The notes: a model not told the origin generated them from the letters alone. DNA of 63,994 nt, filler included, from Dimargaris cristalligena (GCA_003614675.1; 3 parts of 3 records of this genome joined end to end with filler, not necessarily neighbours in it); one strand, 5' to 3'. Positions 22,077-63,994 are shown, counted from the whole stretch's first letter. Program-made: numbers and translations.

Positions 22077-22176
22077 NNNNNNNNNNNNNNNNNNNNNNNN
22101 NNNNNNNNNNNNNNNNNNNNTTAATTAATTAANNNNNNNNNNNNNNNNNNNNNNNNNNNNNNNNNNNNNNNNNNNN
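22077..22176. other. Artificial contig linker (44 N + TTAATTAATTAA + 44 N)
   Basis: Six-frame stop spacer inside Ns. An identical copy is at 44230-44329. Confidence 0.98.

Positions 22177-22233
<57 letters not shown>
22177..22233. repeat. (ACT)19 microsatellite at the contig start, just upstream of the RDI1 ATG
   Basis: Read directly from the sequence. Confidence 0.95.
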
Positions 22234-22242
22234 GTCAACACT

Positions 22243-26775: not shown

Positions 26776-27566
26776 TGTGAATAGTGGGGATGTCTATGGG
26801 GGAGATGGAGGTGAATCAACCGGGGGGGATCAAGCAATGGCAAAAATAAACCCGAAAGGAGCGTGGTTTTTTAAATTAGACGAGTAGGTAGGTAAGGTAA
26901 AATAGCTAGGCCAATTGTTCTGGATCAAGGGAAGGGGTGGTTGTCTCCCAGTATGGACCACTACTGCTGACTGAGTCGGAGCGCTCAGACGGATCCATTC
27001 CCAACCCATGCATGTGCTTGGTAGATCCGGAGATTGGCTGTTCACAAGTTTCCCCACTTTCGCTTCTTGGGTGGCCCCCGAACAGCACCAATAGCAGAGC
27101 GGGGCAACTTCTTTAATAATGGCCCAACCAAAATATCCCACTCCGGTCGATTTGATCTATTACACCGCGGCCAATACTTCAAATTACAATGCTATTAAGT
27201 CACTCCCAGCAGACATGTTCCATTTATATATAATAGGGCCCTCATATTAATGCTCCCCACAGGTTCCATTTCACCTGAAAACAGAGTTTTTACAAGGGTC
27301 GGGTGACGATTACGGTTTATTGATGGACCAACAGCCAGAGTATCCACAAGGTGTATCAAATTACACTCAACTCGACCTACTTAACTTTCACCACCCACCC
27401 CCTCTCGCCTACGCTTAACAGCGGTCCACTATAAACTGCTACCTTGGCTTAGGGACGAGGGACTATAGCGGTGGTGGTGAAGAGCCAAAAAGGAAGCATA
27501 CCGTCTTGGATAGGAGTGTACAGCGACGGATATGTGCCACGGGGCGGAGGAAGGGAAAGGGTGGGG

Positions 27567-27567
<1 letters not shown>

Positions 27568-27601
<34 letters not shown>
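27568..27601. repeat. (TA)17 microsatellite
   Basis: Read directly from the sequence. Shorter (TA)n runs are common throughout the window. Confidence 0.9.
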
Positions 27602-27603
<2 letters not shown>

Positions 27604-27814
27604 TACATATATAGATATAAGTTTGTGCGTGAACGAGAGAGGGGGAGAGTCGGGGTAGGAAAGAAACAAATACCATCCCTATGGGATATACAAGTCACCG
27701 CCGATTGTTGATAAATAAAGCCAAAAAGTAGTAATAATAATAATAGGGGTGACGATGAAGAGATGCAGCGAAGGGCACCGAATTGCCAAAGATGGGGGAA
27801 ATGAATCGATTACT

Positions 27815-36042: not shown

Positions 36043-36656
36043 ACTCAACATCCTTAATAATTCCGGCTAGAAGTAGAGGGGCTAAGGTAGTCCACCCGGG
36101 ACGGGATGTACCCGCATTACTTTTAATGGAAAGGAGGAGGAGGAAGCCCGATATGGTTCCCATTCCCCCTCCCAACCGCGTTTCATACACCCCAACCCCC
36201 GATTTTTGATTCCTATGATTATCCTGGCATTCCGCTTTATTTCCTTCGCACCCTTGTACGCCCGGGGTTGATTGCGAGAGGGTTCTAGCATTAGACATTT
36301 CCATTCTTCGACTCGTCTTGTATTTGTATTTAAACCATATCCTATCCATATATATATATATATATATATATACCCCTTCTCTCACCCTCTGTCCTTATCT
36401 CACACGCCCGACCCACACACTTCTATTAGTTAGAAATCCTCAAAGTTAGTAGTAGTATTAGTAGTAGTAGTGGTGACCTTACTTTGTCCCAAAGTCTCCC
36501 AAACTGCTTTTAACTTAGTTCATATTGTGCATTTCTTAGAAATCCACCGTCTGTGTATCCCCCCCCCGCCCATTATTTGTTTATCTGTAACCAAGCAATA
36601 TATGTGCCTTTATTCTAGTATGTAAAACAACTAACAAAGTGGGACCACCCAACCAT

Positions 36657-44229: not shown

Positions 44230-44329
44230 NNNNNNNNNNNNNNNNNNNNNNNNNNNNNNNNNNNNNNNNNNNNTTAATTAATTAANNNNNNNNNNNNNNN
44301 NNNNNNNNNNNNNNNNNNNNNNNNNNNNN
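44230..44329. other. Artificial contig linker (44 N + TTAATTAATTAA + 44 N)
   Basis: Identical to 22077-22176. Confidence 0.98.
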
Positions 44330-46621
44330 GACCTGAAGTGGGGAAAATAGAATGGTGAGTGGATTTTTCGGAAACACAAATAATGGGCCAAAGCGATGGT
44401 CTATCTGTATTAAAATAGTATAGGGACATCCAAAAATGACGTATAGATGTATACTCCCTTGTGGGTTTAAATTGATCTTCGGACTAATATTTTTATTCTT
44501 GGATCTCCCATACATATATTGTGTCAAATCTTATACAGTTGGGTTGAAGTTCACCCATATGTATAGATCACCCCCTCTCTTATTCATCAACTTTAAGGAA
44601 TACCAACTTTTGTACTATACCAATGCAAGCTAAGTAAAGTTGGTGGCGGTAGTTTTACTATTTCCTCATTTTGGCCCGAATTGGGTAAATATGGCTTAGG
44701 GGGAAGGAATGCATTATGGTTCAATGGCAAACTAGTGCGTGGGTGGCGCCATAAATGGCGGTGGATGATGATGAATGTGCCGTTGGCCACCCAACGCCCA
44801 CATTCATTTGGCGGACGGTGTAACTGGGCTGCTCAATCTGCCGGTCAAAATAAAAGTACCGTAAAAAAGGGGCCCTCTGGAGGAGGGAGGGGGCGGTGGT
44901 GGTATAGTTTGGTTGCCCTAGGCGGCCGAAATCGGCACGGTAAGTTCCACAAAAAGGGTTTCGAGATGGGATGCCTTGAATAAAAGAGCTAAGCACACGC
45001 GCCAAGTGATACACCATGGACATTCTTATTCTTGATGTATTTTTAATACGCGGGCAGCTCACTTGAATTAACGCCCCTTTTTGAAATATTTGCCCCCCTT
45101 CTACCTACCTACCTGCCTACGCTGGGTGGGCGATACGAGTCACACATCGAAGGGGGAGGAGGTTAATGGCGGTAGGAGGAACACCAAGGGTCATTCCGTC
45201 TTGTACTACCCGGATGATTTGATCACAACCCGAAGTAAGTATTAGTGCTGGTGCTGGTGCTGGTGCTGGTATAGGTTAAGCATATCCTACCTTTCGAGCC
45301 TCTGTAGGGTCATCATGACTCACAGTGGGACAGGGCAAGTTATTTTGCTGAGCTGAGCTGAACTTCACCGAACCCTGTGACTTGGCAAGCTCCCATATAT
45401 ATATATATATATAATATTTTTGAAACTCGGTGAAACAATTCAGGCAGGTGGGCCAGTCTTGATACAGCCTCCACATTGGGGCTTGGTGAAGGACATCGCA
45501 GCCTAGGATGTAATATAAAATGATATAAGGGGTATTTCTATAGACTGGGCTATAATGGTTGGGCAGGATATACTTTTAATGATGGTGTAGGGGCTTAGTA
45601 CTGCCCTGCCTTTAGACGCCTGAATCCGAACTAGGAGAACTCTCAGGGAATCCTGAAGGTATATCTCTAATGACGATGGTGCAGTTCTATGCCTTCAATT
45701 CAAAAGCACCAACTATTGTGCCCCGTGAATTTATCCATCATCACAGAATGTGCTCCTCTTTTAATGTAGCTGAATTCAAGATGATGGCTGAATCTTCCAG
45801 ATAGACGTATTTCAATACTGGGATGTATGACCGAATCGCCGGAGCAAAAATAACACAATCTAAAAAGAAACCATGGCTGGTCGATGGGGTTCTTTCTAGG
45901 TCCTCAGTTTCCTCATCCTCGTCCAACCCCCATTTTAATGGCAGAATGCCTCCCCCCCCAAAAAATGCAGCCATTTCCAGCCGCCTAGTTTGAGGTCTAT
46001 TTTTATATATTGATTAACTCAGTTGGTTATGGCGCATCGACTGTCGCTTCTGTTTCCTCGCCCTTGGTCCTCCAGTCTTTCTCTTTTGGACGGTATTGAA
46101 ATCCCAATGGAAAAGGGTCAGTGAACATCGGTCAACTGTGCAACCCAAACGTCCAACAACTCACTGTGGCGGACCACTTTGGCCGCCTTGGTGGGTGTTA
46201 CCCTTGTGAGGGGCTGGCTTCTATTTTTGTAAGGTGGACCACCGAATCGGACGACTGCTGTAAAGCTGTTCCCTAGTTTACCTGATAGGAAGCAAAGGGA
46301 GCGATGCAACTGGCTGGCGGGGTCTTCTGTGTTATGGCTATAAACCGAAGTTGAATCGACGAACAGCTAGTCCGTCCCTTAAATGAAACATTCTTTACAT
46401 TTTAAGCAGCCAGAGGTTTGGGGAACCCATGTGGCTGGCCAGTAGAGTCATCGGGGCCCTTATCGCCACACCACCACTACACTACTCCCCGTAATCGAGA
46501 GTTGTTGTCTTACTTTATACACACCTTTCTTTGGTAGGTCAGATTGCTTTCACTGCACCATTTCCGGCAATTGGGTGTGTCCAACGAGCATCGCAAATCG
46601 TGACACCCTTGGCCAATGCAG

Positions 46622-46630
46622 TATATAAAG
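46622..46630 (+). promoter_or_regulatory. Probable TATA box of the small secreted protein gene
   Basis: TATATAAAG followed about 30 nt later by a pyrimidine-rich leader that runs to ATG 46908. Confidence 0.5.
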
Positions 46631-46907
46631 GTCGGCTCGGGGCAGGCTTGGTACATCTTCATTCAATCACCTTTACCTCACTGCATTACCAGCTCGCCTG
46701 CCGCCATCTCCCAGCAACCACTACTCTCAGCTAGCCCCACCGACATTACTTCTTGATTCCACCCTTGTGTTTTTGAACGTGAACTCCAACTGCAGCGCGA
46801 CGGCACTGTGCATCGTACCAATTATTCCCTTCAACCACCGACTCGGCGTGTCTCGTCGGGCTTGTACGAATAGTGCCTTTAGTGATCACCGCCTAACTCC
46901 GTCCAAC

Positions 46908-47276
46908 ATGTATCTTAGTCGCACTTTCCTGTATACTACCGCGGCACTGCTGGCGTTGGCTAGTGTTTGGTCCAATTCCGCAGTCCAGGCTCGTCCCATG
47001 AATTACGGAAAACCAAACGATATGACCCTGTCCTCGGTCAAGGTCGCCCCCATCGACATCCCGACCCGGCCCACGCCGAGGACTTCCTACCAGGACGACA
47101 TGGCCTATTCGCTCCAGACTTTTAATGAGGGCCTGAAGGATTATATGGGTCACAGCCGCCCCAAGCCCTACCCCCGATGGAGGATTGTGGAGTCCCCCGT
47201 TGTTAGCCAGTCCTTTTCGGACGATGATATTTTTGGATTTGAAGACGATAAGCGTGCGGATAGCGAAACCGCCTAA
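46908..47276 (+). CDS. Small secreted protein of unknown function (122 aa)
   Basis: Signal peptide MYLSRTFLYTTAALLALASVWSNSAVQA-RP, good ATG context (aacATG), upstream TATA and an AT-rich 3' region. Confidence 0.7.
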   Translation: MYLSRTFLYTTAALLALASVWSNSAVQARPMNYGKPNDMTLSSVKVAPIDIPTRPTPRTSYQDDMAYSLQTFNEGLKDYMGHSRPKPYPRWRIVESPVVSQSFSDDDIFGFEDDKRADSETA

Positions 47277-48232
47277 TTCTCTGGATGTAATAGTAATTTA
47301 CTTCCTAATATATTTTTGTGGGTTTAGTTTTTTTTAATCTGGCGTTTAGCGCGGGGCATTTTAGCCGGATCAACCCGACAGCCCTTTTATAGTAGGAACT
47401 GTATAAATATATAATACAATCGTGGTGGTAATGAAGATCTCCTTATTGGAAAAGGGTAGCTTTTAGCAGTGGGCGGATCGGGGGTTGCGTAGAGGTGAAA
47501 CCCACGGACACTTGGACTCGAGCGGCCCTGCAGCTCAACACGGTAATGGTGCCTAGTGTCGGTGTTTGCTATGCCTACTGGATATGAAGGGCATTATGAG
47601 ATGGAGGGGGATGCTTGATATTATTAATCGTGGGAGACGAGCCAGGGGGAGGGGGATTGGAGTGGGGCCGTGAACTGCGGCGCAGGCAAAGCAATGCTGA
47701 CCGTACAGTTGGGGCACCCTGATCCAACAACGGCGGGGTTGACGTAGGATGCATGGGACGGTGAGGGGAGAGAGAAAGAGAGAGATATAAGATAGAAACC
47801 GGCCCAATCAGCGGGGTGAGATGCTTTTATAGGTCGCGCGGTATCCAGGGTATATGCGTGCCCCTCCTTGCCCTTCTTCCTCTCTGTAGTAACGACGAGC
47901 TTCTTTGACTTGCTCCGCGAGTGGTGGTTGGTTTGTTCACCCTTTCTTCCTTTCACCCGTCTTTTAGTTGAGGCTTATTCTATCTTATTATATTCTATTC
48001 TATCCAGTTTGCTTACCCTCTTTTAGGTGGACTTTGTCGGCTGTTGCTCCTTCACTGATTCTCGCCTTCTTTACATAGTTCCAATTCTTCCACCTTCTCC
48101 TCTCCTATTCGATACCTGGTGGTCCCTTTTGGGTGACGGGCTCCCGTTCCCCCCTTTCCCTTTCTTGTCTTTCCTGTGTTCCTCAGTTTGCTGCCTTAGT
48201 ACATTCTTAAACCCCGCTCTGCTCGTGGCATC

Positions 48233-51200
48233 ATGTCCGATTCCTCGCTCCACCGCCCCGTTGCTGTGCAGCCCTCGCCGCGGGCCGCCATCTCCCGTCG
48301 TCCCGTGGCTGCCGTCGCCAGTCCCGCCGCCCCATCTCGTACCGCGCGAGCCCGTCCCTTCGACGCGACCACAGGCTCCCGTATGACTTTTCGCGAACGC
48401 ATCGCGAAATTCCAGGCCCATTTCCCCAACGGCCCGCACTTCCCCTCGAGCGACCACCACCTGGCTACTTTCGTTCGGCCCTGCCAGGAGTCCCGCACTT
48501 CCCCCCCTTCTACCGCGGCTACCCCTCAAGTTCCCAACAGCACCTCACCTTTCCCCGTGGCATCACCCTCGCCAGTCGCCGATCCTAGCGGGGTCCATTC
48601 GAATGCCAAATCCCGCCCCTCCCCTCGACTGTAAGTACACGGGTCTAGGCAAGCGCGCCCACTTCAACCTTCCCTTTCCCTACCCGTTTGGAGCACCGCT
48701 GGTTGGCCCATGTGTGCCATGAGCCCCGCCACTCATTGCCTTGTCCTACCCGTCCCTGCCTAATCCATTTTGCTGCTGTATTCTGTTCTTATCCTACTCC
48801 CTTTCTTAGTAGCCATTCCAAACCCGCGACAGCGGTCCCTCGCCGCCAATCGCTTTCACAACCTGCGGCCCCCAGTAGCCTGAAAAGGTTCGCAGCTTTC
48901 TTAATATATATATATATATATATATATACGCTTATTGTCTCCTACTCTAGCTTATACTTTAGACCCTTGTCTCGGGTGTAGTCAGACCCTTGGGGTCCTG
49001 GACTATCATCAGCCGTGGGCTATATAGGGGGTCTTTACTCTCCGTACATATTTTTCCCAGCGTCGTTGAGTCGCTTCGTTCCTTCACTTATCCACTCCCC
49101 CCCATTGTTTGTATATTAACCACCTCCACCCCCCTTTTCGAATGTCCCTTTACTACCCACCCCTTCCTCACACTACCATGGGCCCCTAGACCACTGCCGG
49201 AGTTCAAGGAGGAAAGTAGTCCTAAGCGGGCGTCCCACCAGCCCCTGCCTGGTCTTAGTTTACGGGATATAATGAGCGAGCTGGAGGTAATTGCGCTTGA
49301 ATGTCTACTATGATGCGAGTTCTTTCTTATCTGCTTACTCGCCATGATCTGGGCCCGGTCTCGCTCGGGCCCCTTTAAAGTGTCTACTCTACGGAGATGA
49401 TGGCCCATAGGAAGGCCGGGGTCCTTTACCCAGCACTTTACCCAATTAGGAGAATGCACCGGTCGGGTGGATTGTCCTCGTGTGGTGTGAATTAGTGACT
49501 GGATCTGACCTCACTCCAGATTTTTCCAATGTACCATGCGACTAACCCCACGTTTCGTAATTATTGGATTACTTGTTATACTCCGATGACGTACGAACCC
49601 TTTCAGCTTATGCAAGCGTCCAACTGCCCCACCCCTCTAAGTCCAACCCTGCCCCCATTCACGTTTCTCAGGAGTCCTCTCGCTACGGCTATTATTTCTC
49701 CCCCGGCTGATAGTTCGCATCGCCCCGATGTTCCCGCCCTAGCGCCTACTCCACCTAATATAGAACCGGCCGCGTCCTATCGAACACCGAGCTCGCAGGA
49801 AAAACCTGTTACCATTGCTGTAGACCCACCGTCCAATGATGCACGCCCTAGTCGATCCGAACGTAAACGCGGTCCCGAACCCGCGCCTGTTGTCATGGTC
49901 CCTGCCTCTATTATCGTCAAGCTCCCTCTACCTACTCGTAGCCAACCTCTCCGCTCACGGCCTCTGGCCAATCGGACCACCGCTGCCGACCAACTAACCG
50001 TATCTGCCGCCTCGACGAATCGCCCCAAGGACCGCAATCGGACCAAAAGTCCGGTAAATCCCATCGGCGAACCCCGGCGGGCTCCGACCGAATCTAATGA
50101 GCCCCCGCGTCGTTCGGATCCGCGAACCCCCTCGAAGCGGCGCCGCTCGATATCCCCAACCGGGCGCTCAGACACGGCACCGTCCTCGTCGCGTCCCCGG
50201 TCCAAGGGCCGGGATTTAAGCCAGTCTGACGTACCGCCTGAACGATCGGTCCCTCGAAGTAGCTCTAGCCATCGCAAACCCTCAGTTGAACGGTCACGTC
50301 CAAGTCAGCGGCACACTAGCGCCGATTCTGAGGTACAGCGCTCCCCACCGCATCGGGACCGGTCCCTCACCCGACCGCTACCTGCTGCCTCTATACCTAC
50401 AGCCAGCCGAAGTACGACCAAGTCTACCGTGGACACCCCTACACCCAGTGCCACGGTTACCTCCCGATTCGGCGTCCTCCCGACCGAAACACCCCGCTCC
50501 TCCCACCGCAGTCGATCACCTGTGCGACGTACTCAAACCCCGAGTGAACGCACGACCTCTCGCCGACCGGAATCCTCCGGTCGGCGTATAACTAAGGATA
50601 CTGGCGAAGATAAGGATAGAGACCGGCCGCGGGACAGCGGTCGGGATAGGGAGCGCGAGCATGCGTCTCATAACTCTGATTGGGATACTGACCAACCCCA
50701 GCGCAGAGACCGTTCCTCAGTCGAACGGTCCCAGTCTCGGGAAGCCACCCTCACCCGGCGAACCGGCGCTTCCAAGCTGGAGAAAGCGATAGCCAACCAC
50801 GCCAGCCCGGTTCTAGAGGCTACCCGTCATCCCTCCACTACCACCACCGCCAATGCCCGCGGTCCCGAGCCTATAACGCAAAAATCCCGCTCCAATTCTC
50901 ACTCTGCGACGGCGGTTCCCTCCCCTGATACCCCGCAGAAATCAGCCCCCGTACGGTTCTCTATTCAAGCCTACCAGCGGCAGCGGCACTCGGGTACCGG
51001 CGAGGGAGCACCGCCGACCTCTTTGGCCACTGAGACGGCCCCCGGTCCACTTACTCCGGATAACTCGCGGCCCCTAGCTGGATCTCAAACTCGGGCCACT
51101 CCACAACCCGGCCGACATGCCCGTTTAACGAGTAACGATTTAATTGAATGGGGGCGCCGCTACAAGCGGGCGGGCCATACCAACTTGGCCAGCCGTAACC

Positions 51201-51862
51201 CAGAGCAACTCACCCTCGGAATAGTTCAGATCCTCCGGGCCAACTTAATTTTCTTGATGCAATACCATGAACTGGGGGACCATCGCGCTACGCAGGATAC
51301 CTTCAACGTGTTGAGCACGGCCCTTCAGTTTGCCAAGTGGGTTTCCGGCCAATGCAAAGCGCACCGCCTGACCACTTTATTTGGCCTTGCGCAGCAGATT
51401 GAGGCCGTGTTCCAACACCGGCTGGGGTTGCTCCACTTCAAACAGTTAGACGGGGAGATTCGTCAAGCGGCAGTGCAAAACGGTCCCCGGCCCAGTAGCA
51501 CCGTGCTTTCCCCGCCCTCCATAGACTCGTTGGCGGAGAGCAGTGCTAAGGGCACCCATAATCTACGCGAGGCTGAAAAATGCTGGCGGGACGGCTCCGA
51601 GGAGTTTTCTCTCCATACCCTAATGAGCAAATTCCCCAACACCTGGTCCCTTTGCCAAGGTTCCTCGCCGTCCGGGGACACTCGGCTTCCTACCACGGGC
51701 TTTACTTCAGCCCGTGCCGCCGTTGATTCCATTGTGGGCTCCAGCTCGGTCCATTGGCCGGTCTCGGTGATTTCCCCGATTCCGAATTTTATCGGATTTT
51801 TAGACTGTGTACTCTTTGAGTATGCTTACCAGCATAAAATTAACTACCGACTCGAGCGGTAA
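48233..51862 (+). CDS. Large disordered protein with an Ebp1/AF4-FMR2-like C-terminal helical domain; exons 48233-48630, 48810-48887, 49190-49286, 49607-51862
   Basis: Splice phases chain in frame. LSPTLPP motif, R/S/D-rich middle, and C-terminal domain WGRRYKR..LFGLAQQIEAV..LMSKFPNTW..PVSVISP..LDCVLFEY. Confidence 0.6.
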
Positions 51863-53084
51863 CCCTCTCCCTATTCATTTGGTCCGCATGGCCCTATTGC
51901 GACGGGAGTTGGGCCCCTGTTATAATCATAATATGATTATTCCCTGGGACCTAGATTTGAGATTGTGGCTATTCGATGGACCTGCCGACCCTTCGTCTCT
52001 CCCTGTTTCCTCGTGGGCATTTACCAGATGCCATTCAACAAACGTGTATTTATAAATAGACGGGGCCGCTGGCTTCGTTTTTACGCCATTTTCATTTTGT
52101 TTTTATTTACAACACCACTCATCCGCACCTCCCCCGTCCTTTGTGTGTTTTTTTGTCCACTCCTGTGCTTATTTGTCTGTTTTCACACTCATAATTTGAT
52201 AAGGTCCCAACTTTAAGTGTGCACCCATTTCGAATTTTTAATTACAATTGACTTAAACGTTTTTCCAAGTGTGTTGCAAGTCCCTATTTTCATTATGCCC
52301 TTCTTCCATAGTCATTATTATTATTATTATTCCTATTTTTTATATATACCAAACAAAAGTATGACGGCGCCTCCCCGCTTTGTAACATTTACCACTTTTT
52401 CCAATCTAACATACGTGATATTCCATATTTTTTTATCACAATATTACACCTTCTGTATTTAGGCCTGTTTCCGCCTTTCCGTGGCTCTGGCTGGCATTTT
52501 TGTTGTTGTTGTTTTTTTTCGTTTTTGACAATGACTCCAACTTCCTATATCGCTGCACTGCTCTCAATATATACATTTGGTCATTGAGCCATGACCCCTT
52601 TGCAATAGACCTATTTTACCTGGTTAACGAAATGAACTTGCGGGCCGAGCATAAGGGAAATTTAGTCTTTGTGGACTTGGGCATATAACATGTGGCCAGT
52701 GAATTATCCTAGGACATAATCCAACCAAGTGGAACTAATAATGTCACAGGTAGGATTAAAACTACTACTGCCAGTAGGCCAATATTATCTTGTCTAATTT
52801 CATATATTTGCTTGGTTTGTGGGGGGCTCTCTTAGGAATATTCACCCTTATTATAGGGAGTCGGAATGACTTACCTGGAATGAGTAAACGTAATCTATAT
52901 AACGTTAATATTATCGTTATTTTTTCGGTTCTTCCAACCCACCTCCTCAAGCCCCAACCTACCTCCGTGTCCCGATTGGGTTTAATTGTGTTTTTCCATT
53001 TTACTAGCTAGATATTTTTAATTCGGCTCCATTATTTGGTTCTAGCTTGCATTGTACCTTTCATAAATCTCCCCAGTCACCGCC

Positions 53085-54386
53085 ATGAGCCAGACTTACT
53101 ACGAGGTTCTCGAGGTTGACGAACAGATCGACGAGCATGGCCTCAAGCGGGCCTACCGGAAAATGGCCATGAAGTTCCATCCGGACAAGAACCCGGAGGG
53201 GGCCGACCGGTTCAAGGAGATCCAGCACGCCTACGAAATCCTCAGCGATCCGGACAGCCGGCGCATGTACGACCAGTTCGGGGAAGCCGGGCTCGATGGC
53301 GCGGGGGGACCCGGCGGTCATTCGGGCGGTCATCCGTTCCCGGACGATATTTTTGCGGATATCTTTGGGGGGACCGAATTTTTCGGTGGGCCTAATATGG
53401 GAGGAGGTCCACCACCCCCTTCGTCGCGGCCCCAGAGAAGCGGTCCGGCCCAGGAGAAACCCCATGACTTGGACGTGTCGCTTGCGGACCTGTACACAGG
53501 CAAAAAGTTCCGGATGGCCCTGGAGAAGAAGGTGGTGTGCGGGGTATGTGACGGCTCGGGTAGCCGCACGGGCAAGACTTTCAAGTGTAAACTGTGTGGT
53601 GGCCAAGGGTTTACTTTGGCCACCCGTACCTTGGCCCCGGGCCTGACCCAGCGGATCCAGGTCGTATGTTCCGGCTGCCACGGGGAAGGTCGCATCATTC
53701 GTAAGAAGGACCAGTGCCGCAAGTGCCACGGTGAAAAGGTCGTGCGGGCCCGCAAGGTGGTCACTATCACGGTCGAACCGGGAATGGCCGATGGTGATCG
53801 GATCACTCTGGCCGGACAGGGTGACCAAACGCCCGGCCAGGATGCCCCGGATGTCATTTTTGTGCTCCGGCAGACGGAGGACGCCAAGTTCCAGCGTAAA
53901 GATAATGACTTGCACACCGCCGTGTCGATTTCCCTGGGCGAAGCCTTGGTCGGATTCAACCGGCAATTAGTCACCCACCTCGATGGCCGGGGTCTCGTGG
54001 TCAACCAGCCGACGGGCAAGGTCGTCCGGCCGGGTCAGGTGAAGTGTATCTACAACGAAGGTATGCCCCATCGCGGCAAGCCCCACCTGCGCGGGGCCCT
54101 CTACTTGACGATTGATATTATTTTCCCTCCCGATCACTGGATCAAGGAGGCCCGGGAAGTGGCTGCCCTCAGCGACCTACTACCGTCGCTGTCCGCCCAG
54201 GATACCCCAGCGCCCGCTGAATCAACCACCACGGTAGCGTTGGCGCAAGTGGCTGATGATGTCAATCCGTTCGCCCAACCCGAACCGGCCCACGGGCACC
54301 AACACTACGACGGGCCCCATGATTACGACGAATTCCACCAATACGGAGGCGGGGCTCCACCCGAAATGGAATGCAATCAACAGTAA
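53085..54386 (+). CDS. Type I DnaJ/Hsp40 (Ydj1/Xdj1/DNAJA family), intronless
   Basis: J domain with HPD, G/F region, four CxxCxGxG-type repeats and a C-terminal CaaX-type CNQQ. Confidence 0.95.
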   Translation: MSQTYYEVLEVDEQIDEHGLKRAYRKMAMKFHPDKNPEGADRFKEIQHAYEILSDPDSRRMYDQFGEAGLDGAGGPGGHSGGHPFPDDIFADIFGGTEFFGGPNMGGGPPPPSSRPQRSGPAQEKPHDLDVSLADLYTGKKFRMALEKKVVCGVCDGSGSRTGKTFKCKLCGGQGFTLATRTLAPGLTQRIQVVCSGCHGEGRIIRKKDQCRKCHGEKVVRARKVVTITVEPGMADGDRITLAGQGDQTPGQDAPDVIFVLRQTEDAKFQRKDNDLHTAVSISLGEALVGFNRQLVTHLDGRGLVVNQPTGKVVRPGQVKCIYNEGMPHRGKPHLRGALYLTIDIIFPPDHWIKEAREVAALSDLLPSLSAQDTPAPAESTTTVALAQVADDVNPFAQPEPAHGHQHYDGPHDYDEFHQYGGGAPPEMECNQQ

Positions 54387-55314
54387 AGCCCAGCCGATCC
54401 AGGGGCGGGGACCGGGGTGGCAAGGGGGGACGGAATGTGCCTTGAGTTCCCGGCAAAATAGGAATCGACTAAATGGGCGATATTATGGCACGGACCCCCG
54501 GGATTCACGAAATTTAATTTTGACCTTTACCTGTTGTTCATTTCTCTTCCTGTTTACTCGCTCGTGGTAAGCTGATCCGAGTTTCTAGTATTCCCTTTTC
54601 TTAGAGTCTTAATTGTAATTAATACTTTGCTTATTTCTTCGAGGTAGAAAACTGACTGTAATAGAGGGCTTTTACCAGTGATCCGTGGAAGTGTCTACTG
54701 GGGAATTTGGGACAATTGAACTGGGTAGAGCCAGTATTAGTACCTCTTCTGATCTACAATATAATTTGTGATTTCTTACGCCATGCCTATTGTTAAAGAG
54801 GTGGTGGGGGGTCATAAAGTATTCTGGGAGCTTTTCTTACTGTTTCCAAGGAAATTATGTACCATATTCGCTCTCAGTGCCAATTATGCCAAGGGATGGC
54901 TGTTGGTTGTTGTTGAGTGGAGGAAATAACTAGTTAGCCAAGGAACGTATTGGTTGGCGCAAAAAGGAGAGGACCAAGAGTAACAGCGTTAAACCCCACT
55001 CTTGCGCGATTAAAGTATACATGGGCTGTTCGCCACCTGGTTACATTTAAAGGCCAAAGAAAGAGAAACAACCCTTCACTTACATGCCCGCTCTTCGCTA
55101 ATTTATTCCCATTTCTCCCTTTTCACTTCCTCTATCCTTCGATCGCAGCCCTCCGTTTTTTTTCAATTCTGGCCCAAGACCACTTCATTCTATTCATTTA
55201 AAAGTGATTTCGGCCAATTACGCATACCCAGCGTAACAGCGCTATATCTCGCGACTCGAGCGGCTCCTCGCTACGCATTTCATATATATATTAGCTACAT
55301 TCATACCCACCGCC

Positions 55315-57262
55315 ATGTCCAAAGCTGTATCGACACTCGGCGGCTCGTTAGCGGCCAACACCGCTGAGTACCTGGCCCGGAACTCCTCCATTCCCGCATT
55401 CCTAAGCAAATTGTACAGGTAAGAATGGGCCCCACTTCTTGCTAACCTCCATTGCTTTCCCTGGCGATGTCTTTTAAAATTCTTATTATATCTACATACC
55501 ACAAAATAAGGAAAACTTGCTATCCCGAACTCTCGCTTCGTCGTTCACATAACTCGTTCTACCAAAGAATACGTCCCTCAAGGCCGAATGCCAAGCCGTC
55601 AGCACACGTTATTCTCTTCAGCCACCTTTCTTAACTCGATCAACCACCCCTTAACACCAATCATTTGATTGGCTTTTACATTTTTTCATACCACACCATC
55701 TATCATTCACAAAATAGAATGGTCGACGATGTATCAACCGACGGCTTAATAGCCTGGGCCGAGGATGGTGATTCGTTTTATGGTAAGTGACCACTGTCAC
55801 CAAAATTGAACACTATAGCCGTATACACTGCGACTACACCGCCTACATTAAGCCGTCCAATTTTAGTCTAATTCCCTGACACCAACTATAAATCCGCGGA
55901 TTTAATAATATTATCACCCCATTGACCTGAATGGCCTCTACAATTTAATCAGTTTTCAAACCAGAAAGCTTCGCTAAACAGGTCCTGCCCCGCTACTTCA
56001 AACACAACAATTTCGCAAGCTTCGTCCGCCAATTAAATATGTATGGCTTTCACAAAATTCCCCACCCGCAGCAAGGCGTACTTAAGGCAGACCCTGGCAC
56101 CGACAAGCTGGAATTCAGCAACCCCCACTTTAAAAAGGACCGCCCCGATTTGCTGTGTTTTGTTCTGCGCAAGCGCTCCAAACCCGAGGATGACAAGCAA
56201 TCTGATATTATGGACATGCAGCGCGTTCTCCAGGAACTGGCCACGATCCGCAATCACCAGATGGCTATTAGCGACGACCTGCGCAAACTCCAGCAGAACA
56301 ATGCCCTCCTGTGGGAAGAGGCCGCTGCGGCCCAGCAACGCCACCAGCGGCACCAGGCCACCATTGACAAAATCCTACGGTTCTTGGCCTCGGTGTACAC
56401 CACCACCACCAATTCCACCCGTTCCCTATCCCGGAAACGACCCCTGCTGATCGAACCCCTGGACCAGGAGGCGGCGACCAGTCCGGCCAAACGGCCCCAT
56501 GTACAACAACATCCACAGTCGTCCCCTCGGCCGACCACCGCTCCCCCGTCGCCGGCGTCAGCCCTGGACCCGGGCCTTGTCCCGTCCAGTCCGTCAGTGG
56601 ACCCGAGCATGATCGATATGCATAACCCATTGGACCCGAATGCCCATTGGCAATACCCCTTAGACCCCAATGTGCTCTCCCGGCTAGGCCATTACTTGGG
56701 TCTGGCTGACATTGGCGCGTCTGCCCCTCCCCCGGCCCCAACTACCCTCCTCACCGTGAACCCCCATCCTCTATCGACCCCGCCAGCTGGGTCTGCTCCC
56801 CTACCCACTCTCGCCCCCGCCCCAACTTTGGCCCCCGCACCAACAATACCCCTTTCCTCGGCTGCGTCGAGCCCCACGCCCAATAACCACCTGCCCCTCA
56901 ACCACCAGGATATAACCGATAGTATGGACCAGCTCAAAAATAACCTAGATTCCCTCACTGGTTCGTTTGGGTTTGATTTCCACAATACCCCCATGGAACA
57001 GTTTCCATTCAATATGGGCGATTTATTAGGGTCCGAGGATGCCCTCCACCAATTTCTTAACCTGCAGGAGACCGCCAAGAACCCAGGCTCGCCCAGGCCA
57101 CCTGAAATTCCATTAACCACAACCGCCGCTACTCCACCCCCCGCCCCCGCCTCCCGCAAACCCATTTATATAGTTATCCATTGCCCTACGGGTTGCCCCA
57201 ACTGTGTGTTTATTTGTGTATTATTATTACCACTACCTGGGTGGAATCTAAATGTTTCCTAG
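55315..57262 (+). CDS. HSF1: Heat shock transcription factor; exons 55315-55418, 55718-55782, 55953-57262
   Basis: IPAFLSKLYRMV, LIAWAEDGDSF, VLPRYFKHNNFASFVRQLNMYGFHK, and the HR-A/B region NALLWEEA..RHQRHQATIDKILRFLASVY. Confidence 0.93.
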
Positions 57263-57682
57263 TTCGGCCTAGGAAAATACGGATTGACTGGATGTCCGAA
57301 TGAATGGGTTGTGTTTTGCCAATAAATTAAAAGTTCAGTCGCGAATATCGGCTTTGGAAGAAAAGTCAAACTGCTACCCAATGGGTTGTATAACCAATAG
57401 ATGTATCATTTGTACCGCAACAAGATGTGGGGGGGGAATGACTGCACATAATACTCCCCCCCCCACCCCCAATCGACCTTGAAGGCCAAATGGTGAAACA
57501 TATAATGTGAGCCGATCGGCCAATTCCGGAAGGCCCGGATCCCATCTGTCAACGATTTTTTCGGGTTGGTTAGCTACAGGGATCTAATGGGACTCAATGG
57601 CACTTCACCTTGGTACCTTATTCCACTGCTACTACCAACGGTATATTCGTTTAGCCCTCTTCGGCCTGTGCATTTGGCTACA

Positions 57683-59326
57683 ATGCCCGTGCAAACCATT
57701 CCCGAAATACCGGGTCTCTCAATGTACCCCGAATTTATTGGCCCCGATGAACAAACGGCCCTGATGGCCACCCTCGACGGCCTACCCTGGTCGGGTTTAG
57801 GGGTTGGGTACGTTACTCTATACTCGAATATGGCATAGGATTCAGCTAAGAGATTAAGTCTGGCCCATTTGAACTTCCCCCCTTTACCCGAGTTTCCCGC
57901 ATCCTTGGAAACCCCCCCCCCCGATTCGTATGGTCCCAGGTGCTGTAGTTTACCTCTAACCCACATAGGACCGTCTTCTACCCACACCATGCCCCACATG
58001 CATGCCCTCCCCACTACCACCCAATGTATAAATTAATAGGCCAAATCCTGAGCTTAAACGGCGTACCCAACAACGCGGGTGTACCTTCAGTTTTCGCTAC
58101 AGGTGAGGAAATAAGCTACCCCGAATTATATGGCGAATGCTTTATTTATTCGGCATCAGGACATTCACTGCATTCTATACCAAACGTATTCGTCACCTCA
58201 CTGAATATTTCCATATACCCATCAAATGGCTCCCCCTTGTAATACGTGCCAAGCTGCTTATTAACCACTCTGCCACTCTACGTGTTTACTTGGTCTGTCA
58301 CGATACCCCCTGCCCCTCATTACTTTGGCTTATCGGCCTAACAGAAAAGCCATCACTTCTACTGAACCACTTCCCGGCTGGGCCCGGGATCTGGTGGCCC
58401 GACTGGCCCCTCTCACTACAATGAAGGATGCCCTCAACTCCATTATTATTAATGAATACCAGCCTGGTCAAGGTACGTGAAACTCATATAACTTAAACTT
58501 CGGAAAGGGATTTCCCGTGGTTTACCAGCCCTGGCATTTGAATTATCTATCATACTAATCCTGGCCTCGTAACGTTCGTCACATGTCCCCTCCTCTTCTG
58601 TTCATCCGATTTAGGTATAATGCCCCATGTTGGTAAGTCGGCTGGCTGGAATAGCCTTGTACTACGGCCATCACGCTCTTTACATGCTAAATGATAACAT
58701 CGTATAGTAGATTTAAACAGGAAGATGTTGCTCGTATTGCTGTTTTTCTCACTTATTCTGGCTGGATACCGCGACTACGTTTTGTAATTGTATATCCCCC
58801 ACCTCTAGACTCTCTGACGGCCTTTGGGGATACGGTATTCGCGTTGTCGCTTCTTTCGCCCTGCGTTATGACATTTGATCGCGTTGGTTCAACCGATTCA
58901 TACCCCATTGTTTTGGGTAAGTCCAGACTCCCCCTTCTCATTACGACCCAAAGGGACGGAGTTTGATAATCGACATGCTTGCTGTCATCAGCCATATATC
59001 TATATGGTATTGGTGCCCAAGTTGACCGACATCAGCAGGAAAATAAAACCAGCAAGAAAGGAGCCTAAGAACTAACTGTTCGTATACCGTAACCAATCCC
59101 AATACTTACCATCAAAAACCCCTTGCCAATATTGCCTATTTCCTCTCTAGAACCCCGGTCTCTGCTGGTACTCACCGGACCAGCCCGATTTGGGTTCAGG
59201 CACGGAATTTCGAAGGATCTTGTCGAGACCCTAGGTGATCGAACTATTCACAGAGAGCGCCGCGTATCGCTTACCTTCCGATATATCATTCCAGGTCCTT
59301 GTAAAGAAGAGGCCGCCTGTAAATGA
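57683..59326 (+). CDS. AlkB-family 2OG-Fe(II) dioxygenase; exons 57683-57807, 58040-58102, 58345-58472, 58615-58632, 58809-58916, 59151-59326
   Basis: IPGLSMYPEFI, LKRRTQQ, IINEYQPGQGIMPHVD (HxD), ALSLLS, LEPRSLLVLTGPARFGFRHGI and RRVSLTFR. Confidence 0.9.
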
Positions 59327-60026
59327 TGCTGACAATAAACTCAGCAGCTCTGAAATTCAACAGGACCCAAGGCCCTGGAACCAATGTACTAGAATAATAT
59401 TTTTTATTGATATATCTACACGGAATAGTACCACTCTCCCTGACTTGTAAATAGCCGCCTAATCCAATATTATAACGTTTGGACTGTAGCCCAGCTACTT
59501 TTTCTTACAAAAATAATTAACACGCCACTTTAATTTCGTATAAGCTGCCGAGTTCATAATAAAAGCGTTTTTGGATACAACACATAACTGTGACGATTGG
59601 AGAGTTCTCTGACATGGTGACATCACCAGTGATTTCCTGGGAGTAATATAGTTCACATCACCCCATCCCAGACTGGCGGAGCGTTAGATAAGCCCCCCTC
59701 CACCATTAGCTGGATCAGACTTAGTTGGTAGAGTTTCACCTATTAGCGCCCACTGCTGTGCGGCAACGGGCTTGAATTCACGTCTGCATTAGCCGCGGGC
59801 CACTTCCATAAACCCGCCCCTCCGCCTGAGAAAAAAACAAGTTGCCTATATTAATTAGGCAGTCTGCCCCCTGTAGCTCAGCAAGCTTGACAGGTATTAC
59901 TCCAAACCGACAGAATATATATAACACTCGTCGTTGCCGATTACTCTCATTCACCATTCCACCCACCCCTCCCCCAACCACCGTAACGCCATCACCACCA
60001 CTACTACTACTACTACCCCCCCCAGC

Positions 60027-61609
60027 ATGCCCAACCATCGCCCCGTCATTCTCGTCACCGGTGCCTCTCGTGGCATCGGCCTGGCTATCGTTCAGGAGGC
60101 CCTGAAGCTAGGGTCCCACGTGGTCGGCATTGCCCGGTCCGAGTCCCGTCTGCAAGAGATTCAGACAAAGCACGAAGAACAGATTGGCTCCAAGTCGGAT
60201 AACCCCGAGGCCGCCCCACAGTTCCGCTATGTGGCCGGGGACCTCAACGATGCCAGTACCACCCAGCGTTTGGTGGACGTGGCCATCCAGAACTTTGGCC
60301 GCATTACCGGACTCGTACACAATGCTGGGTAGGTTTCATTATATATATATATATACAGAAAAATTCGACGGTGTGAGACGGTAGTATGCCGTTACATTGG
60401 TATATGGAAAGTCTGGTTGTATGACTGTTTAAATCTAGCCCCCCACCCCACCACGTATCTCCCCACTTCACCCCACACTATGGGAAAAATAACCAATGAC
60501 AGAGTGGAGCGTTGGTAGATAAGCCCCCCAAAAAACCGTCACTTACAACTGATATTATGTACTCCCCTACTCTATACACCTGTACGGCCAACTAGCGTAA
60601 TCGAGCCCATTCAGAAAATCGCAGACGTGGACGTGGACGCCTGGAAGGCACTATTTGATGTCAACGTCTTCGCGGTTGTCCGACTGACCCAACAAGCCAT
60701 CCCCCATTTGCGTAAATCCCAGGGCCGCATTGTGATGCTGGGTTCGGGTGCATCCACCCATGCTTACCATGGCTGGTCCTCCTACTGTTGGTAAGTCAAC
60801 GTGTGACCCATAACATTATCGCATTCAAGGTGTAATAATAATAATGGTGATGGTGAGGGTCCCCCCATTCAAGCGAGGGTAATAATAATTAGCCCGCCCT
60901 AACATTGCTCCTTGTTCTCTCCAATTAACCAACGATCATGATTTAACCTCCCCTCCTCTCTCTCTCGCACGTACTCTCCCTCGCCTAACCTACGTGACTG
61001 TATGGACGAACTCCCACCTAATATAATCTGATCTCTCCGCACCTGGGATTGGTGGTGGCAATACTATATAGCTCGAAAGCGGCCGTCCACCGTCTGGCTG
61101 CTTCGTTGACCGTTGAAGAGGCTGCCATCACAACGGTCACCATCGCACCCGGAGTTGTCGATACGGATATGACCCGGATTGTCCGTGAAGATGGTAAGTA
61201 GTATGATTAAAAGAGGGTTTATTAACGCTAAAAATGGATCGATTCACCTACACGAACGGATTTGGAGAGACAAGGAAAACAATGGAAATGCGCGTGGGAT
61301 CATGTAAATTTATGGCTTTTATTAATAGTAATATCGAATGGACTGAACTATCCTATTTTTATATTGGGCCGATTTTGTCCCTCATCTATCCAAACGGGTG
61401 TGCTCGCATGCACCACTTCAGCCGAATCGGGCATGTCGTCGCATGAGCACGCACGTTTTGTTGGTCTCGAAGCCAACAAAGAAATGGTGCGTCCCGAGCA
61501 GCCGGGCCATGTTATCGCCGCCGTGGCTATCTCTGGCGAATCTAGCCTGGGTGGTAAAGAGTTCAAGTGGAACGACTCTCCCCTGGCCCAATACCAGCTG
61601 CCAGCCTAA
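60027..61609 (+). CDS. Short-chain dehydrogenase/reductase; exons 60027-60328, 60596-60790, 61072-61193, 61422-61609
   Basis: TGASRGIG, LVHNAG, SG, YCCSK (YxxxK across a splice junction) and APGVVDTDM. Confidence 0.92.
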
Positions 61610-62309
61610 CTCTCCTCTCTCTCCATACTACCGGGGTATATCGGAGGTCAAAAATCCTCCCTCCATAACCGCATAGACGCCCTTTCCGTGTACAGCGGCC
61701 ATTTTTAAGAAATATTGACAGCTGGCCACAGCGGGAATAAAGTAAACATATCTAAGTCACAGCTTGACAATTTATTGAACACGTATGTAAAGACAAAAAC
61801 ACAACGACAGGGAAAAGGGAGAGAGATGGCAAAGCAATGCGGATATATGTATTAGTGCAACCTCTAACTATACTATAGGGGGGGAGTGGACGTTGAGTAG
61901 GTGAATGGGGAGTAAAACAAGGTGAAGGAGAGGGGGGCATATAAGCAACATAATCAAAGCAGATAGGAAAGGGATATAGAACGAAAAGGGGAGAATACTA
62001 TGGGGGAGAAGAGGGCGGAGCTTATATTGGTGACGAGTGTAACAACCTGTCCATGGCTCGCTTCGTTAGCAATGAAGGTTTCTCGTCTCTACTGAGCCCA
62101 TAATTACAAAAGACAGTTGCGATAGATTATGTGCCATCCGAGACGTTAGGTAGCAGCGACACTCCCCAGGCCCGAATGACCTGTCCAACAAGCTAAAAGG
62201 ACACCAAACGACGAGATGGTAGACGCAGCGGAATTGACGGCTGGGAGTATACAAAAGGGAGGGGAAATAGGTGGATAATGCGATGAAGTATAGGTGGGGG
62301 GGAGAATAT

Positions 62310-62792
62310 TTAACAGCACCCGCTGCTGGACTGCTGCTGGGGCACGGACTGGGTGCCGCCCAGGTTGATGGACTTCTTATCCTTCTGGCTGTTGGTGGGG
62401 ACGGTGTCCATGATATCCTTAATCTGCTTAGCCATGGTCAAGAAAGCCTGCTCCACATTGGTGGAATCCTTGGCGGAAGTTTCCAGGAAGGGAACGCCCA
62501 ACTGGTCGGCGAATTCCTTGGCCACGGTGTACTCGACCACCTTCTTATCTTCCAGATCGCTCTTGTTACCGACCAGCAGTTTGCTGACGCCCTCGCTGGC
62601 GTAGCGGTCAATTTCCTGCAGCCACTGCTTGACGTTGGTGAAGGTATCGGTGTCGGTGACATCGTATACCACGATAATGCCGTGGGCGCCCCGGTAGTAC
62701 GACGAGGTGATGGTGCGGAAGCGTTCCTGACCGGCCGTATCCCAGATTTGCAGCTTAACGGTCTTGCCCTCGAGCTCTATGGTGCGGATTTT
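62310..62792 (-). CDS. YPT1: Ypt1/Rab1 GTPase, 3' half (exon 3, residues 46-205)
   Basis: Preceded by a TATTAAC branch point, pyrimidine tract and TAG acceptor. Reads [51 protein letters not shown] stop. Confidence 0.95.
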
Positions 62793-62857
62793 CTAGTGGG
62801 GGGTGGAATGAAGTAGGGTGAATGAATGGAAGGGGGTTAATACAGGAGGGAACAAGG

Positions 62858-62903
62858 CGGGGAGTACTGTGGGCTTGGGGGGAATGGGGTGGTGGTACAT
62901 GGG
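62858..62903 (-). repeat. Left arm (46 bp) of an inverted repeat; partner at 63890-63944
   Basis: Minus strand CCCATGT(ACC)3CCATTCCCCCCAAGCCCACAGTACTCCCCG. Confidence 0.95.
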
Positions 62904-63533
62904 TGGAAGTAATCAGAACTGTCAAACGGGCATAAAGGGTATATATATTATAAATACGGGAAAAGGCAAATACAATGGCCGGATGGGGTAGCGAGATGCA
63001 GAAGATGATCGACGTCGTCAACAGCGCCAGGCCACTCAGTGAATAACAAAGAACGGGTGATTGAAAAGAGAGCCACAAGAGACAAGAGAGACTACTATAC
63101 TACTTTACTTTACAGTCACATGATTAGAGGGGTCAGGCGGGGGGTCACATTTGATTCCGCTGTGCTGAGTAGGAGGGGAGGTCTTGGGTATATGCGCAAT
63201 GAAACCCATCTGCAACTGTGAGCCTGGGGTGCGCATACATCCTCCTCCCCTCCGCCCTTTCTCTCTCTCTCTCTCTCTCTCTCCACTTCTATCTACTAAT
63301 ATTACCCGTTTGTTTCTCAGCCAAGGCGGAAACCAAACTCTCGCTTGCTTCATCTCTTTCCTTTAGCCATTGTTGTGTTATTCCTTGTTCTGTTCATACT
63401 ACCTTTCTTTCTTGCTTTCGCTTCTACAGCCCGCCCTCTCCTACTTAGCTCCTTCGTCTCTCTTTCCTCCGTCGACGCTCCCTCCCATCTGCCCGTTTCC
63501 TTATACTCTCTACTACACACACTTCTGCCCAAC

Positions 63534-63832
63534 ATGAATCCCGAATAGTAAGTCCGCTTGACGAGCCTTCATCTCTGCCCGCCCACTCACTTACTCCTGG
63601 CCGTAACCTGTCTAGGCCGTTGCTATACTGTACTGTCCCATACCCCCATACACACGTATACTCATCCTACTCCCTTCTATGACCCCCTCACTACTCTCCC
63701 AACACCCATAGCGACTACCTTTTTAAGCTGCTGTTGATCGGCGACTCCGGCGTCGGTAAATCCTGCCTGCTGCTCCGTTTTGCTGACGACACCTACACGG
63801 AGAGCTACATCAGCACCATCGGCGTAGACTTC
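63534..63832 (+). CDS. YPT1: Ypt1/Rab1 GTPase, 5' half (exons 63534-63547 and 63712-63832, residues 1-45)
   Basis: [45 protein letters not shown] followed by a GTAAGT donor at 63833. Confidence 0.95.
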
Positions 63833-63889
63833 GTAAGTATATACCTGCCTCCCCCTTCAGTTCTCCATAGCCAGTTTCATAAGTCTCAC

Positions 63890-63944
63890 CCCATGTACCA
63901 CCACCACCACCACCCCATTCCCCCCAAGCCCACAGTACTCCCCG
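63890..63944 (+). repeat. Right arm (55 bp) of an inverted repeat; partner at 62858-62903
   Basis: CCCATGT(ACC)6CCATTCCCCCCAAGCCCACAGTACTCCCCG, identical to the left arm except for three extra ACC units. Confidence 0.95.
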
Positions 63945-63994
63945 ACAAGTGATGGGTGTGAATGGGACATGAGGCGTTTGATAGGTAGGAGTAA

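Follow-up and report, generated by a model that had tools for sequence, protein, structure and literature searches.

How does a YPT1/Rab1 gene come to lie in two divergently oriented halves on opposite strands? The question is raised by the final part of a 63,994-nt stretch of Dimargaris cristalligena DNA (GCA_003614675.1), here called the window, in which three exons of such a gene were delimited (Table 1). YPT1 is essential in yeast. Exons 1 and 2 occupy the plus strand and together amount to 135 nt, or 45 codons, the last residues being GVDF; exon 3 occupies the minus strand. The ATG and the 5' end of exon 3 are 741 nt apart, and the two halves are directed away from one another. An earlier reading made from the sequence alone (the sequence-only reading) had placed residues 1–45 and a GTAAGT donor on the plus strand, and exon 3 about 740 bp away on the minus strand, pointing off. 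Coordinates and translation agree with the first statement, and the measured distance and the AG acceptor directly upstream of exon 3 agree with the second.

The three exons were joined by their coordinates in a script, which gave a translation of 205 amino acids. This translation was identical to the NCBI protein KAJ1994846.1 from Dimargaris cristalligena at 205/205 positions and to protein P0004 of Tieghemiomyces parasiticus at 199/205. It had been proposed that the halves are complementary (45 + 160 = 205 aa) and free of visible decay, and both points hold: the joined halves reproduce the full length of KAJ1994846.1 with 0/205 differences, and the splice sites of both halves are intact, with a GTAAGT donor, an AG acceptor and phase 0 at the boundary between exons 2 and 3. 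A protein search with exon 3 (8000 candidates scored, best 120 considered) returned two matches of 100% identity over its 160 aa, RKP36098.1 (179 aa) and KAJ1994846.1 (205 aa). These were the two D. cristalligena entries among the 120 matches listed.

The identity of the protein was assessed by profile and structure comparisons. The 205-aa protein matched the Pfam Ras profile (PF00071) over positions 1–161 of 162 (E = 1.2e-67), that is, over a complete Ras-family GTPase domain. The halves are exactly complementary, since exon 2 spans Ras profile positions 1–36 and exon 3 spans positions 38–161. A comparison with solved structures yielded 132 sequences at E ≤ 1e-40. Among the best 60 of these, the 24 top matches were all Rab1A, Rab1B or Ypt1 chains (342–296 bits), and the top match to any other Rab was Rab8A (230 bits). 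As judged by these sequence comparisons, the protein is nearer to Rab1/Ypt1 than to other Rab subfamilies. Exon 2 encodes the P-loop GDSGVGKS, and exon 3 ends at its C-terminal side in SGCC, a double-cysteine prenylation end.

Table 1. Positions of the features discussed, counted from the first letter of the window.
Feature	Position	Strand	Description
Contigs in the window	1–22076; 22177–44229; 44330–63994		Split by linkers 22077–22176 and 44230–44329
HSF-type factor	55949–57262		Between DnaJ and YPT1
Short-chain dehydrogenase fragment	near 61.0–61.6 kb		Between DnaJ and YPT1
YPT1 exon 3	62310–62792	-	160 codons (62792 to 62313, KIRTIE...SGCC) plus stop at 62312–62310
Intron 2, 3' part (I2b)	62793–62857	-	65 nt; AG acceptor adjoining exon 3
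IRa	62858–62903		46 nt; intron-2 sequence S with (ACC)3
Turned segment	62904–63889	+	986 bp; upstream region, exon 1, intron 1, exon 2 and I2a
YPT1 exon 1	63534–63547	+	ATG plus 11 nt, then GTAAGT donor
Intron 1	63548–63711	+	164 nt; GTAAGT...AG
YPT1 exon 2	63712–63832	+	121 nt; P-loop GDSGVGKS; translated from 63713; Pfam Ras positions 1–36
Intron 2, 5' part (I2a)	63833–63889	+	57 nt; GTAAGT donor at 63833
IRb	63890–63944		55 nt; same sequence S with (ACC)6
Spurious first exon of RKP36098.1	63914–63970	-	19 codons, from Z plus IRb; residues 1–19 read from 63970 to 63914
Z	63945–63994		Unrelated 50-nt tail that reaches the contig end

The segment carrying exons 1 and 2 lies between the two arms of an inverted repeat, IRa and IRb. 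The perfect core of the repeat comprises 39 nt (62858–62896 versus 63906–63944) with 100% complementarity. In an alignment of the two arms, the sole difference was (ACC)3 versus (ACC)6, and the flanks diverged immediately on both sides. The repeated sequence, S, is intron-2 sequence: I2a runs into IRb on the plus strand, and IRa runs into I2b and exon 3 on the minus strand. We found 104 inverted-repeat pairs in the whole window. Among the 25 longest, the repeat at YPT1 was the only one that was not of low complexity, the other 24 consisting of (TA)n or (ACT)n. We also considered whether S might be a dispersed repeat or a transposon end, and this candidate was rejected: within 64 kb, the other long match of a 55-nt query with S was IRa itself (39 + 16 nt), and beyond IRa every match in the 64-kb window measured 15 nt or less.

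When the turned segment was flipped between the two arms, a collinear three-exon gene appeared on the minus strand. Its restored intron 2 measured 168 nt, close to the 164 nt of intron 1. The gene is thus neither scrambled nor decayed, as a single flip of 986 bp makes it normal. The locus amounts to a single clean inversion of 1 kb in which the sequence of one breakpoint is present twice.

The restored intron also bears on a partial inverted duplication, according to which a plus-strand exon 3 lying beyond the end of the sequence would complete the gene, and the minus-strand exon 3 would be a spare. With the contig stopping 50 nt beyond IRb, whatever follows is hidden from view, as such a duplication would allow. 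Against this, the sequence after IRb differs from the 3' part of intron 2, the flip restores an intron of normal length, and the contig break would be expected at exon 3, yet the contig continues for 18 kb. We regard a duplication of this kind as highly improbable.

The position of the locus within the assembly was examined next to its internal structure. Four runs of 44 N occur in the window, in the pattern N44, TTAATTAATTAA, N44. This pattern is a six-frame-stop linker, and the window therefore consists of three contigs; neighbourhood across either linker carries no meaning. The last contig is 19,665 nt long, and the rearranged part is its terminal 1.1 kb. The third contig stops there, so position 63994 is a true contig end, located 50 nt beyond IRb and the second junction. 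Sequence comparison across the window, its other contigs included, detected no second copy of the terminal 50 nt (Z), and Z as a match to another contig of the window was thereby ruled out.

The origin of the assembly is described in the portions of the D. cristalligena genome paper available to us. These portions report multiple displacement amplification (MDA) of sorted cells, co-assembly of pooled libraries, and SPAdes in its 'careful' and 'single-cell' modes with k = 21, 33 or 55. IRb, at 55 nt, is exactly as long as the largest of these three k-mer sizes. The final 55-mer of the contig (63940–63994) shares 5 nt with IRb, and the 50-nt tail would therefore consist only of k-mers spanning the second junction. 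A 55-nt arm and a 5-nt overlap would together be the geometry of a k = 55 graph edge made of junction-spanning k-mers, a reading that draws on the general behaviour of de Bruijn assemblers. A frame of 89 aa reads through from exon 2 into intron 2, IRb and Z. A search with this frame gave 4973 candidates, 4568 of them at E ≤ 0.001, and the best 120 were considered. Among these 120, no match followed the intron; those of 100% identity spanned 44–49% of the query (the exon 2 part), and no match of any identity spanned more than 88%.

An intact counterpart of the gene was found in a second D. cristalligena assembly. KAJ1994846.1, the 205-aa protein identical to the joined translation, and KAJ1994849.1 are three accessions apart and share one contig of 187,429 nt. 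The window carries a DnaJ ORF 8 kb from YPT1, and KAJ1994849.1 is its ortholog (429/433 identical). The three-step gap between the accessions fits the gene content between DnaJ and YPT1 in the window, where an HSF-type factor and a short-chain dehydrogenase fragment are located. With KAJ1994846.1 intact and the DnaJ ortholog on the same contig, the second assembly, known here from its protein records and their contig membership, so carries YPT1 in collinear form at the syntenic position. Between the two DnaJ proteins there are 4/433 differences, and so the comparator represents a different genotype or allele. A paper on further Kickxellomycotina genomes describes, in the sections accessible to us, unamplified Illumina data, SPAdes and Funannotate; these sections name the isolate RSA 1219 and do not tie KAJ1994846.1 to it.

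The DnaJ gene itself is a Ydj1-like single-exon gene (53085–54383, plus strand) with a CaaX-type end. One of its four differences from KAJ1994849.1 is an L versus P beside a cysteine of the zinc-finger region. Variation between strains or alleles may underlie the four differences, as may errors of amplification.

The rearrangement has left a trace in the deposited protein set. The first 19 residues of RKP36098.1, a D. cristalligena protein of 179 aa, are read on the minus strand from Z and IRb. In this model, then, exon 3 is preceded by a spurious exon, and the splice between them spans the inverted segment. Ras profile positions 1–34, the P-loop included, are missing from it. Lacking the P-loop, RKP36098.1 is therefore unsuitable as the Ypt1 of the species.

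Taken together, these results lead us to consider the split layout probably the product of an inversion that arose during MDA or assembly. This explanation is the most likely one because the second assembly has the gene intact at the same place. In the living fungus, YPT1/Rab1 would then be an ordinary three-exon gene, most likely collinear on the minus strand, and the split layout would belong to the contig and not to the chromosome. MDA would have joined nearby segments in inverted orientation at short homologies, as it typically does, and SPAdes would then have built these junctions into the terminal 1.1 kb. The resulting order would be exon 3 with I2b, S, the promoter-to-exon-2 segment backwards, S again, the 50-nt tail and the contig end. 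Both novel junctions would stem from amplification or assembly, not from the chromosome. The sequence-only reading had listed an assembly or whole-genome-amplification chimera among four possibilities. It emerged as the best supported of these, by the MDA origin, the contig end and the intact syntenic gene, and it stays a probable reading, not a settled one.

MDA produces chimeras frequently, and they have been counted in MDA products of one E. coli cell. The accessible text of that study gives 495 chimeras in 10.9 Mb of reads; among the chimeras analysed, 406/475 were inverted joins, the partners in most of these lay on one branched molecule at a distance of <10 kb, and priming took place at 2–21 nt of complementarity (Lasken & Stockwell 2007, PMC1855051). 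As far as that text goes, the YPT1 locus is like these chimeras in its amplified DNA, its inverted join, its spacing of about 1 kb and its location on the same molecule. The template was amplified: the contig is tied to RKP36098.1, and the genome paper of the species describes MDA in the portions at hand. The join is inverted and falls within 10 kb, the 986-bp segment being turned beside its own continuation. As for complementarity at the junctions, there is the 5-nt overlap between IRb and the terminal 55-mer, a figure whose comparison with the published range needs the true reference sequence. A few bases are possibly shared at the YPT1 junctions, as in the MDA chimeras of the accessible text. 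The undecayed halves, the intact gene elsewhere and the position at a contig end match the look of an MDA chimera.

The published MDA chimeras, in the accessible part of the study (PMC1855051), are single junctions in reads, whereas the YPT1 locus has two junctions framing a 46/55-nt duplicate and is found in a contig. This difference counts against an artefact: there are two novel junctions, one at each edge of S, and a single chimera gives only one. The difference between (ACC)3 and (ACC)6 also speaks against an artefact, in that a one-step artefact does not predict it. It needs two microsatellite alleles or slippage products among the reads, which is plausible in a co-assembly of a species reported to be non-haploid. 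Misorientation by the assembler across a natural repeat was considered as a sole cause and rejected as unlikely: the arms share 39 exact nt, less than both k = 55 and the length of a read. This doubt is grounded in the general behaviour of assemblers.

Three further points weigh against an artefact. A real inversion that followed a staggered break would look the same, clean and with its breakpoint duplicated; the comparator is of a different genotype, and the layout may reflect a real strain or allele difference; and a non-haploid genome could shelter a broken allele. These points lead to the main rival of the artefact, which we hold to be unlikely, namely a real inversion confined to one haplotype or to this isolate. 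According to this explanation, a staggered break in intron 2 would have left a copy of S at either end of the inversion and inactivated one YPT1 allele, with an intact allele, not assembled separately, supplying the function. A heterozygous allele with an intact copy elsewhere was also among the four possibilities of the sequence-only reading. Ranz and colleagues (in 2007) reportedly attributed breakpoint duplications to staggered breaks.

The structure of the locus, a clean inversion plus an inverted duplication of one breakpoint, is what such an event would leave behind. Inversions with inverted duplications at their breakpoints are described from Drosophila in the accessible part of Ranz et al. 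(2007, PMC1885836). The YPT1 locus is like those cases, to the extent that this part describes them, in having one breakpoint sequence at both ends in opposite orientation. The Drosophila inversions measure kilobases to megabases, lie between species and are verified in several genomes, whereas the inversion at YPT1 measures 1 kb, lies in an essential gene and is known from a single amplified assembly. The arms at YPT1 differ in microsatellite length, as two genomic copies might. D. cristalligena is reported, in the literature portions available to us, as likely not haploid, and the source of the intact gene differs slightly in genotype (the 4/433 DnaJ differences). A contig break just past the breakpoint would also be expected where haplotypes rejoin in the assembly graph.

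Other observations point away from a real inversion. This assembly offers no intact YPT1 model beside the split one: KAJ1994846.1, from the second assembly, is the one member of its 90% cluster, and D. cristalligena accounts for 2 entries among the 120 matches listed for exon 3. MDA chimeras are far commoner than 1-kb inversions within an essential gene, and a broken allele would have to persist without decay. If a real inversion were nonetheless present, this non-haploid fungus would be sheltering a null allele of an essential gene, or else the locus would represent something far less common.

The sequence-only reading had also suggested a reversible switch, in which natural inverted repeats surround a cassette of promoter and exons 1–2 and flipping in vivo turns YPT1 on and off. 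The inverted repeats that it presupposes are present and constitute its sole support: arms of 46 and 55 nt, of which 39 nt are perfect, frame exactly the segment that makes or breaks the gene. The enzyme to act on them did not turn up. Of the stop-to-stop ORFs of the third contig, 8 in the neighbourhood of YPT1 were scanned, and none carried a domain of a recombinase or transposase. Known invertible switches are the bacterial ones of fim/hin type and the FLP-mediated flipping of the yeast 2-micron plasmid. As in these systems, inverted repeats flank a promoter-containing segment at YPT1; unlike in these systems, no recombinase was found in the 8 ORFs scanned, the target is a housekeeping gene, and one orientation was seen. 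Turning off a gene that is essential in yeast has no obvious use, and repeats so short are poor recombination substrates. A real repeat would, moreover, equally promote template switching during MDA, which leads back to an artefact. We therefore give an in vivo switch very little credence.

Trans-splicing was evaluated through the pairing potential of the two half-transcripts. It was proposed that the inversion is fixed and that the divergent halves are joined by spliceosomal trans-splicing, in the manner of the split introns of Giardia. The exon ends would permit this, with a GTAAGT donor after exon 2 and an AG acceptor before exon 3, both in phase 0, and both halves are without decay. The pairing, on the other hand, is lacking. 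The longest match able to pair the two RNAs was 7 nt. The predicted duplex had an energy of -79.4 kcal/mol, as against a mean of -83.3 (sd 7.2) for shuffled sequences, and 67/100 shuffles were as low or lower, which places the energy within the shuffled range. The two copies of S are unable to pair as RNA because, with the repeat inverted in the DNA, both transcripts carry S in the same sense. Direct repeats of at least 14 nt were absent from 61800–63994, and the second assembly has a collinear gene.

The trans-spliced introns of Giardia lamblia show extended base pairing between the two pre-mRNAs, according to the accessible portion of Roy (2017, PMC5224939). Like the Giardia split introns of that portion, the YPT1 halves are exons with canonical signals in separately transcribed pieces. 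The Giardia intron halves described there pair extensively and carry a cleavage motif, in contrast to the YPT1 halves, which are without pairing potential. The Giardia-like reading thus fails on pairing, and we rate trans-splicing as extremely improbable.

A combination of the above would be that the inversion is real and YPT1 is still expressed, either because the cassette flips back in some nuclei or through trans-splicing that dispenses with intron pairing. We consider this very unlikely. If true, expression of YPT1 from an inverted locus would be unprecedented among the essential housekeeping genes of early-diverging fungi.

An artefact of amplification or assembly, the explanation we prefer, would make this locus a clean example of a contig end at which a single-cell amplified assembly imitates a spectacular rearrangement of a gene. 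Structural claims based on amplified assemblies require confirmation at the read level or from unamplified DNA.

Several further features of the window were recorded. An open frame of 777 aa on the plus strand (49529–51859) is rich in Ser, Arg and Pro and has no Pfam match. Its single match at E ≤ 1e-10 was from Dispira simplex, with 27% identity over 40% of the query. The 777-aa sequence was not found exactly in the protein collection, and so the deposited model differs or is absent. A second ORF, of 122 aa (46908–47273, plus strand), likewise has no Pfam match and is identical in both assemblies (two contigs, the longer of 187,429 nt); its N-terminus is predicted to be signal-peptide-like. 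Among the simple repeats, a long (ACT)n microsatellite (22177–22234) opens the second contig, and (TA)n runs, also long, lie at about 27560–27625 and 36340–36375. Simple repeats seem to coincide with some of the assembly breaks.
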